A DNA stretch of 64,000 nucleotides, from assembly GCF_003334335.1 (NCBI RefSeq), contig NZ_QOWQ01000011.1. One strand, 5' to 3'. The notes below the pieces were generated by a model. The model was not told the DNA's origin, searched no databases, and saw nothing but the letters and a program-made list of their open reading frames with translations. Shown piece by piece: positions 12,714 to 12,728 of this stretch (its first letter is position 1; every line of letters begins with the position of its first letter). Origin of the DNA: Escherichia coli. Its GTDB lineage: Bacteria > Pseudomonadota > Gammaproteobacteria > Enterobacterales > Enterobacteriaceae. The position numbers and the translations under genes are program-made.

Positions 12714-12728
12714 TGCACGTTTATTGCA
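12714..12728 (+). promoter_or_regulatory. Candidate sigma-54 -24/-12 element upstream of potF
   Basis: TGCACGTTTATTGCA matches the spacing of TGGCAC-N5-TTGCA, but the -25 G is T; about 60 bp upstream of the potF ATG. Confidence 0.3.

Follow-up and report, generated by a model that had tools for sequence, protein, structure and literature searches.

The promoters of the Escherichia coli Ntr regulon, among them glnAp2, glnHp2 and the promoters of glnK, astC, ddpX, patA/ygjG and rutA, share a -24/-12 architecture with exact spacing and are bound by sigma-54 in vivo. In the -24 block of sigma-54 promoters, TGGCAC, the first G of the GG dinucleotide is normally near-invariant. NtrC can act on such promoters from a distance, by DNA looping, and its sites at glnA have been moved more than 1 kb away; another remote NtrC enhancer lies about 650–840 bp upstream at relA. 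The promoter element analyzed here, potFp, precedes potFGHI, the operon for a nitrogen-scavenging putrescine ABC transporter. It shares the architecture, the exact spacing and the occupancy by sigma-54 in vivo with the Ntr promoters, and the induction of its operon on nitrogen limitation, as measured on potG and potI mRNA, depends on rpoN and ntrC. Unlike these promoters, potFp has ATGCAC in place of TGGCAC, shows very low occupancy, lacks an upstream NtrC site and is not reported by NtrC ChIP-seq. In contrast to the remote sites of glnA and relA, the candidate NtrC site at this locus lies downstream, between two cistrons of the transcribed operon, from where it would act on potFp.

We analyzed a stretch of 64,000 nt of E. 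coli DNA, hereafter the window. Window positions equal MG1655 (U00096.2) coordinates minus 880,219, an offset fixed from two published sites inside the window. The following features define the locus:

12712–12728, + strand: sigma-54 element potFp, the 17-mer TATGCACGTTTATTGCA, identical to the published ChIP-seq motif OS08
12788–13900, + strand: potF, open reading frame for the periplasmic putrescine-binding protein, first gene of the operon, annotated as such by RefSeq in 5,420 E. coli genomes
13995–15128, + strand: potG, open reading frame with a GTG start at 13995, placed by reading the sequence against the known N-terminus of the protein, MNDAIPRPQ
15138–16091, + strand: potH, open reading frame, with potI next downstream

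The upstream gene, ybjN, ends at 12437 and the potF ATG is at 12788, which places the element within the ybjN-potF spacer, oriented toward potF. This spacer was matched in 5,420 of the 5,426 complete E. coli genomes, and the gene annotated there is potF.

The 15-mer TGCACGTTTATTGCA (12714–12728) is found on the + strand, 60 nt 5' of the potF ATG. The -24 block reads ATGCAC (12713–12718), with T12714 where the first of the two G's is expected, and is followed by the spacer GTTTA and a -12 block, TTGCA (12724–12728), in which the GC dinucleotide expected at -13/-12 within TTGCW is present at 12726–12727. Compared with TGGCAC-N5-TTGCW, the full 16-mer ATGCACGTTTATTGCA (12713–12728) departs from the consensus at two positions: T(-26) is replaced by A and G(-25), the first G, by T, and of the GG at -25/-24 the second G alone is kept. 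The -24/-12 spacing is canonical, with 12 nt from G12715 to C12727 (10 nt between the dinucleotides). Both the exact G(-24)-to-C(-12) spacing and the TG standing for GG are as the original prediction described them for 12714–12728. The near-invariance of the missing G elsewhere counts against reading the element as a promoter. The motif was also tried as an NtrC site and rejected, its TGCA-to-TGCA spacing being wrong for one (11 nt, not 13).

Taken by itself, the sequence match is no better than chance. The window contains 34 motif matches with at most two mismatches, fewer than the 45.9 ± 7.2 of its shuffled versions. A position weight matrix (PWM) was trained on 40 published intergenic E. 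coli sigma-54 sites, with potF and its near-twin ygfT excluded; it gives potFp 6.6 bits, under the lowest training site (7.7 bits). At least this score is reached at 86 of 127,968 window positions, and about 0.24 such matches are expected per 350-nt spacer on one strand. We judge potFp to be real because of published ChIP-seq data and conservation, not because of the motif match.

In E. coli MG1655, the sigma-54 ChIP-seq site OS08 has TATGCACGTTTATTGCA as its motif, on the + strand, with potF as the downstream gene (Bonocora et al. 2015, PMC4591121). The peak, at 892944, is 5 bp from the motif centre at 892939, which corresponds to window position 12720, and the site was listed with a fold-above-threshold (FAT) value of 2, a PSSM score of 6.83 and the EcoCyc status ‘predicted’ in 2015 (PMC4591121). 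An earlier ChIP-chip region, 892604–893381, spans OS08 (S3 table, PMC4591121). Sigma-54 occupies this site in vivo, so that the defective -24 block is tolerated here; the occupancy is low, near the ChIP threshold, and this counts against the potFp reading. The PSSM score (6.8, against 9–12 for other Ntr promoters) is low because ATGCAC replaces TGGCAC. No sigma-54 ChIP-seq site has been reported in potG, potH or potI, and potF was among the RegulonDB sigma-54 promoters by 2011. The site and its sigma-54 interpretation are, then, already known from databases and a genome-wide ChIP-seq study. In gSELEX, the strongest peak of the RpoN holoenzyme lies in the ybjN-potF spacer (Shimada et al. 2021, PMC8743547). 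When the two studies are compared, this peak lies 307 bp upstream of the ChIP motif, whereas other sites that they share agree within 3–72 bp, and the offset counts against the potFp reading.

Elsewhere in the spacer, the sigma-54-like 17-mer CTGGTGCAGTGGCTGCG (12462–12478; 6.5 bits, canonical GG/GC spacing) lies about 55 bp from the top holoenzyme gSELEX peak, inside a terminator-like hairpin of ybjN at 12450–12482 (85-nt fold, -26 kcal/mol, z = -2.5). As a second sigma-54 site it might explain the gSELEX offset, but its position within the ybjN hairpin and a ChIP-seq peak that lies elsewhere count against it. Two further published ChIP-seq sites fall in the window, OS07 (TTGGCGAAGAAATTGCA, 2661–2677, + strand), upstream of mdfA/cmr, and IS10 (58871–58887, + strand), inside serS; both were recovered by the motif and PWM scans. 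Strong PWM matches were ATGGCGCGAATTCTGCA (16.9 bits, 49818–49834, - strand), ATGGCAAGAGTTTTTCA (13.1 bits, 15959–15975, + strand), which is within potH, and ATGGCACGTTTAATGTA (12.7 bits, 27646–27662, + strand). The potH match at 15959 was rejected as a sigma-54 site, there being no published ChIP-seq site at that position. The three matches illustrate how loosely the occupancy of a site follows its motif score.

The nearest relative of potFp in sequence is the ChIP-seq site OS32 upstream of ygfT, TATGCCCGTTTATTGCA (upstream of MG1655 ygfT, L081 2479–2495, minus strand), which has 21 of 22 nt in common with it (ATATGC[A/C]CGTTTATTGCAT; window 12710–12731). No other intergenic ChIP-seq site has T for the first of the two G's, and OS32 likewise has low occupancy (FAT 3) and belongs to a nitrogen-related gene cluster (purine/urate). 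The flanks, however, are unrelated, the loci are different and the activators probably so, and OS32, unlike potFp, is poorly conserved in the published table (PMC4591121).

To follow the element beyond E. coli, 80 potF loci from contigs of one genome per species were scored by PWM over the 400 nt 5' of each ATG. In about 50 of the 80, the best or second-best match is [T/G]ATGCA[C/T]-N5-[T/C]TGCA, about 76 nt before the potF ATG or, in a few genera, up to about 125 nt. Some 15 genera have it, including Escherichia, Citrobacter, Enterobacter, Klebsiella, Raoultella, Kosakonia, Lelliottia and Phytobacter as well as Mangrovibacter, Pluralibacter, Buttiauxella, Cedecea, Siccibacter, Trabulsiella and Superficieibacter; among the same 80 loci, the PWM did not find it in Yersinia, Pectobacterium, Rahnella, Dickeya or Brenneria. 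The S5 table of Bonocora et al. has the same taxonomic pattern (PMC4591121). Two lineages have changed the element: in Salmonella the -12 block TTGCAT has become AGGCAT, and in Yokenella the promoter spacer is 2 nt shorter.

Aligned with MAFFT, 39 distinct sequences share invariant ATGCA and TGCAT columns and a few invariant A's upstream, and the 5-nt spacer is variable; the -12 TTGCA is invariant in 48 distinct orthologous sequences, although such invariance partly reflects the pattern (a regular expression) by which these 48 sites were picked. Positions left free by the pattern match the asymmetric sigma-54 consensus, with T1 in 41, G8 in 44 and T11 in 45 of the 48. AT in place of TG in the -24 block is retained across the approximately 15 Enterobacteriaceae genera. 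Position by position, the PWM imposes a heavy penalty at positions 2 and 3 only, all others being neutral to near-optimal except position 9 in E. coli, and with TG restored in silico the E. coli element would reach 19.3 bits and the Enterobacter type 21.2 bits, as high as the best of the validated sites. By these per-position scores and the 19–21 bits reached with TG, potFp is a sigma-54 promoter of excellent quality but for two bases of its -24 block, a defect that is conserved.

In Kluyvera intermedia (L041 1820–1885; also L015, L018 and L024), the region 5' of potF has a palindromic insert of about 70 bp with a canonical sigma-54 motif, TTGGCGAGATTTTTGCA, of 15–17 bits; the conserved TATGCAT element, closer to potF, is present as well. 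The canonical motifs 5' of potF in Kluyvera and Pseudocitrobacter were rejected as homologues of the E. coli element, as they lie inside a small palindromic insertion.

Around the element, the alignment and RNA folding delineate three further features:

12703–12711, + strand: G-A-N-AAAA(A) block directly 5' of the -24 element, from the alignment of 39 sequences
12739 (± 2 nt), + strand: predicted transcription start, by the published rule of 19 nt past the motif centre
12752–12769, + strand: hairpin GUUCGUU-UGUU-AACGAAC in the predicted 5' UTR, stem 12752–12758 / 12763–12769, in both the minimum free energy and the centroid fold

The A columns of the block are invariant and its G nearly so, and E. 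coli has one A more than most genera. The start, as predicted in PMC4591121, would lie 12 nt past the C of the -12 GC and 49 nt before the potF ATG; the original prediction had placed it near 12740, so that two predictions agree. In the studies consulted, neither TSS mapping nor promoter mutagenesis was found for potF, which, like the ‘predicted’ EcoCyc status, counts against the potFp reading. Over the 39 sequences, 88.6% of the cells of the leader hairpin can pair, against 23–47% in slid controls, with compensatory changes at 3 of its 7 pairs and many U-G intermediates. Such conservation fits an RNA element inside the predicted potF transcript and lends the predicted start indirect support. 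Rfam gave no credible match for the leader or the spacer (best E-value 0.49), and a known RNA family was rejected. The hairpin has a conserved loop region, TTGTTAAC, and the loop resembles an ArcA half-site (TGTTAA); the hairpin may serve as an RNA element, as an operator or in both roles.

Lrp, an activator of several sigma-54 targets, occupies the potF promoter under every condition tested, and sites for Lrp, ArcA and ArgR are annotated there. The block CTGGCTAAAGTTATTCT (12622–12638) recurs about 160–240 nt 5' of potF in many genera, such as Citrobacter, Raoultella and Superficieibacter, and may be one of these annotated Lrp, ArgR or ArcA sites.

When wild-type cells are depleted of nitrogen, potG mRNA rises 6.0-fold and potI mRNA 3.2-fold, and the authors of that study conclude that RpoN and NtrC are both needed (PMC8743547). 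The RT-qPCR targets were potG and potI, not potF (PMC8743547), which counts against assigning the response to potFp. Under slow ammonium feeding, that is, NH4 limitation, potF RNA and protein rise together with those of ddpX, rutA, argT and patA (bioRxiv 10.1101/262139). The nitrogen regulation of potFGHI to which the original prediction referred is borne out for potG, potI and potF, and the sigma-54/NtrC promoter that it tentatively proposed is supported by the identity of the 17-mer with OS08 and by the need of potG and potI for both RpoN and NtrC. Counting against the potFp reading, NtrC ChIP-seq of nitrogen-starved cells gave 21 regions, from which potF and potG are absent.

A candidate for the NtrC site was found inside the operon:

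13948–13964, no strand assigned: NtrC-type palindrome CGCACCAT-T-ATGGTGCG, a perfect dyad located by motif search, candidate enhancer
13926–13932, no strand assigned: extra CGCACCA half-site, called from the sequence as a possible weak second NtrC site

The palindrome, the one strong NtrC-type site of the window, is flanked by the potF stop (13900) and the start of potG (13995), about 1.2 kb 3' of the predicted transcription start, and the half-site is 22 bp upstream of it. Against TGCACCA-N3-TGGTGCA, CGCACCATTATGGTGCG matches 12 of the 14 specified bases; both mismatches are outermost and the core, GCACCA-N3-TGGTGC, is perfect. Two other genera have the perfect consensus. NtrC binds this spacer in vitro: a gSELEX peak at 894130 reaches 95% of the maximum, and the ‘potG’ spacer probe is shifted with NtrC in EMSA (PMC8743547). 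The palindrome is about 45 bp from that peak. Among 49 distinct sequences, GCACC and GGTGC, the half-sites, hardly vary, whereas the five bases between them do. Hardly any of the 80 loci has an NtrC-like site (at most 3 mismatches to TGCACCA-N3-TGGTGCA) in the 2 kb 5' of potF.

Such a site is present in the potF-potG spacer of 45 of the 52 loci that have the sigma-54 element (49 by a relaxed core match) and in none of the 28 that lack it, counts that are not phylogenetically independent because they mostly set Enterobacteriaceae against other families, one clade against the rest. Within Enterobacteriaceae, Salmonella and Yokenella, the two with damaged potF promoters, are both without the NtrC site, and only these two look like separate joint losses of promoter and NtrC site. 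Between 13721 and 14600, the PWM finds no sigma-54 match of at least 4 bits on either strand. As this interval has no such match and ChIP-seq has no site in potG, potH or potI, the simplest reading of the spacer palindrome would be that it is the enhancer of potFp.

In five Citrobacter loci (L003, L005, L006, L007 and L008), the right arm of the palindrome continues into a correctly spaced sigma-54 motif of 12–15 bits, for example CTGGTGCGTTATTTGCA (13.7 bits) and ATGGTGCGAATTTTGCA (15.4 bits), about 87–104 nt past the potF stop. This motif resembles the E. coli ygfK promoter and may be an internal potG promoter. The spacers of E. coli and Enterobacter have a GG-to-GC distance that is 3 nt too short; with this spacing and no PWM match, an internal sigma-54 promoter of potG was rejected for E. 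coli.

Sigma-54 could be bound at potFp non-productively, with the nitrogen induction coming from elsewhere, such as an internal promoter 5' of potG with the adjacent NtrC site, the arrangement that Shimada et al. assumed (PMC8743547). For many sigma-54 ChIP sites no promoter activity is known, a FAT of 2 is low, the RT-qPCR covered potG and potI only, the ‘potG promoter’ probe bound both NtrC and the holoenzyme (PMC8743547), and the Citrobacter palindrome leads into a good, correctly spaced motif. We nevertheless consider this explanation unlikely, given that the E. coli spacer has the 3-nt deficit and no match of 4 bits or more, that gSELEX with RpoN alone has no peak at the spacer and ChIP-seq none in potG, potH or potI, that potF itself is induced by nitrogen limitation, and that the bipartite element is kept at a fixed distance from the potF ATG.

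The conservation could also reflect another function of the same bases. With A2, T3 and T18 invariant, ATGCA-N7-TGCAT is a perfect 5-bp inverted repeat, and in TATGCATGATTCTTGCATA, the majority sequence, 8 of the 9 arm positions obey the symmetry. A symmetric operator for a dimeric transcription factor, to which the sigma-54 likeness would be secondary or with which it would overlap, would account for the retained T; the G that would improve sigma-54 binding never occurs, and sites for Lrp, ArcA and ArgR are annotated in the region. It appears very improbable to us all the same: antibody against sigma-54 enriches the site in ChIP, the symmetry is broken at positions 7 and 13 just as sigma-54 demands (Y7, T13), the spacer preferences are like those of other sigma-54 promoters, such as pspG (TTGGCATGATTCTTGTA), and we could name no factor with an ATGCA-N7-TGCAT motif. 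Still smaller is the chance we would give to a mainly repressive or occluding sigma-54 site, competing with a sigma-70 promoter over the A-rich block (TGACAAAAT in most genera). Repression of some targets by the RpoN holoenzyme has been proposed by Shimada et al. (PMC8743547), and in our own reading the conserved upstream TGA-N-AAAAT resembles an extended -10 element; yet potFGHI mRNA rises on nitrogen depletion in an rpoN-dependent manner, and the E. coli block has CGA rather than TGA. A consensus scan of 12350–12900 found no sigma-70-like promoter on the + strand and a single weak site on the opposite one, and a sigma-70 promoter in the ybjN-potF spacer was rejected. As for a functionless chance match, the motif statistics alone stand at chance level, but the published binding, in ChIP-seq and ChIP-chip, effectively refutes this explanation; the fixed position across about 15 genera and the degeneration of promoter and NtrC site together in Salmonella and Yokenella also speak against it, and we give it almost no credence.

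Taken as a whole, the evidence is best explained, with a probability that we put at roughly 75%, by the motif being potFp, a weak NtrC-activated sigma-54 promoter of the putrescine ABC-transporter operon potFGHI. In the mechanism that we propose, RNA polymerase with sigma-54 would bind the -24 (ATGCAC) and -12 (TTGCA) blocks at 12712–12728 as a weak closed complex, its weakness being due to the AT that stands for the consensus TG in the -24 block. On nitrogen limitation, phosphorylated NtrC would hydrolyse ATP and the closed complex would open. NtrC~P is probably bound at 13948–13964 and would most likely act from 1.2 kb downstream via DNA looping. Transcription from near 12739 would then yield a 49-nt leader with its small conserved hairpin, followed by potF, potG, potH and potI. 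We infer that this element, and not another, drives the induction. The handicapped -24 block would be maintained by selection; this would keep occupancy as well as induction low and make the promoter reliant on high activator levels or on helpers such as Lrp, which could assist through DNA bending. More tentatively, and with a less than even probability, potFp may be a naturally handicapped promoter in which AT for TG has been selected and whose sole enhancer is the intra-operonic NtrC site, this site doubling in Citrobacter as the -24 region of a second, internal promoter.

As a weak sigma-54 promoter, potFp illustrates cleanly, in a natural setting, that a -24 element without the first G can be used by sigma-54, and scanners tuned to GG...GC miss or under-score real sigma-54 promoters of this kind. 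Only two parts might repay experiment, the defect conserved in the -24 block and the NtrC site within the operon. If the side observations hold, namely the conserved defect, the lack of an upstream activator site and the co-evolving intra-operonic NtrC site, they bear in a testable way on how promoters are tuned and where enhancers are placed. If true, potFGHI would offer a natural and conserved instance of a bacterial enhancer that lies downstream, inside an operon, and is coupled to a tuned-down promoter.
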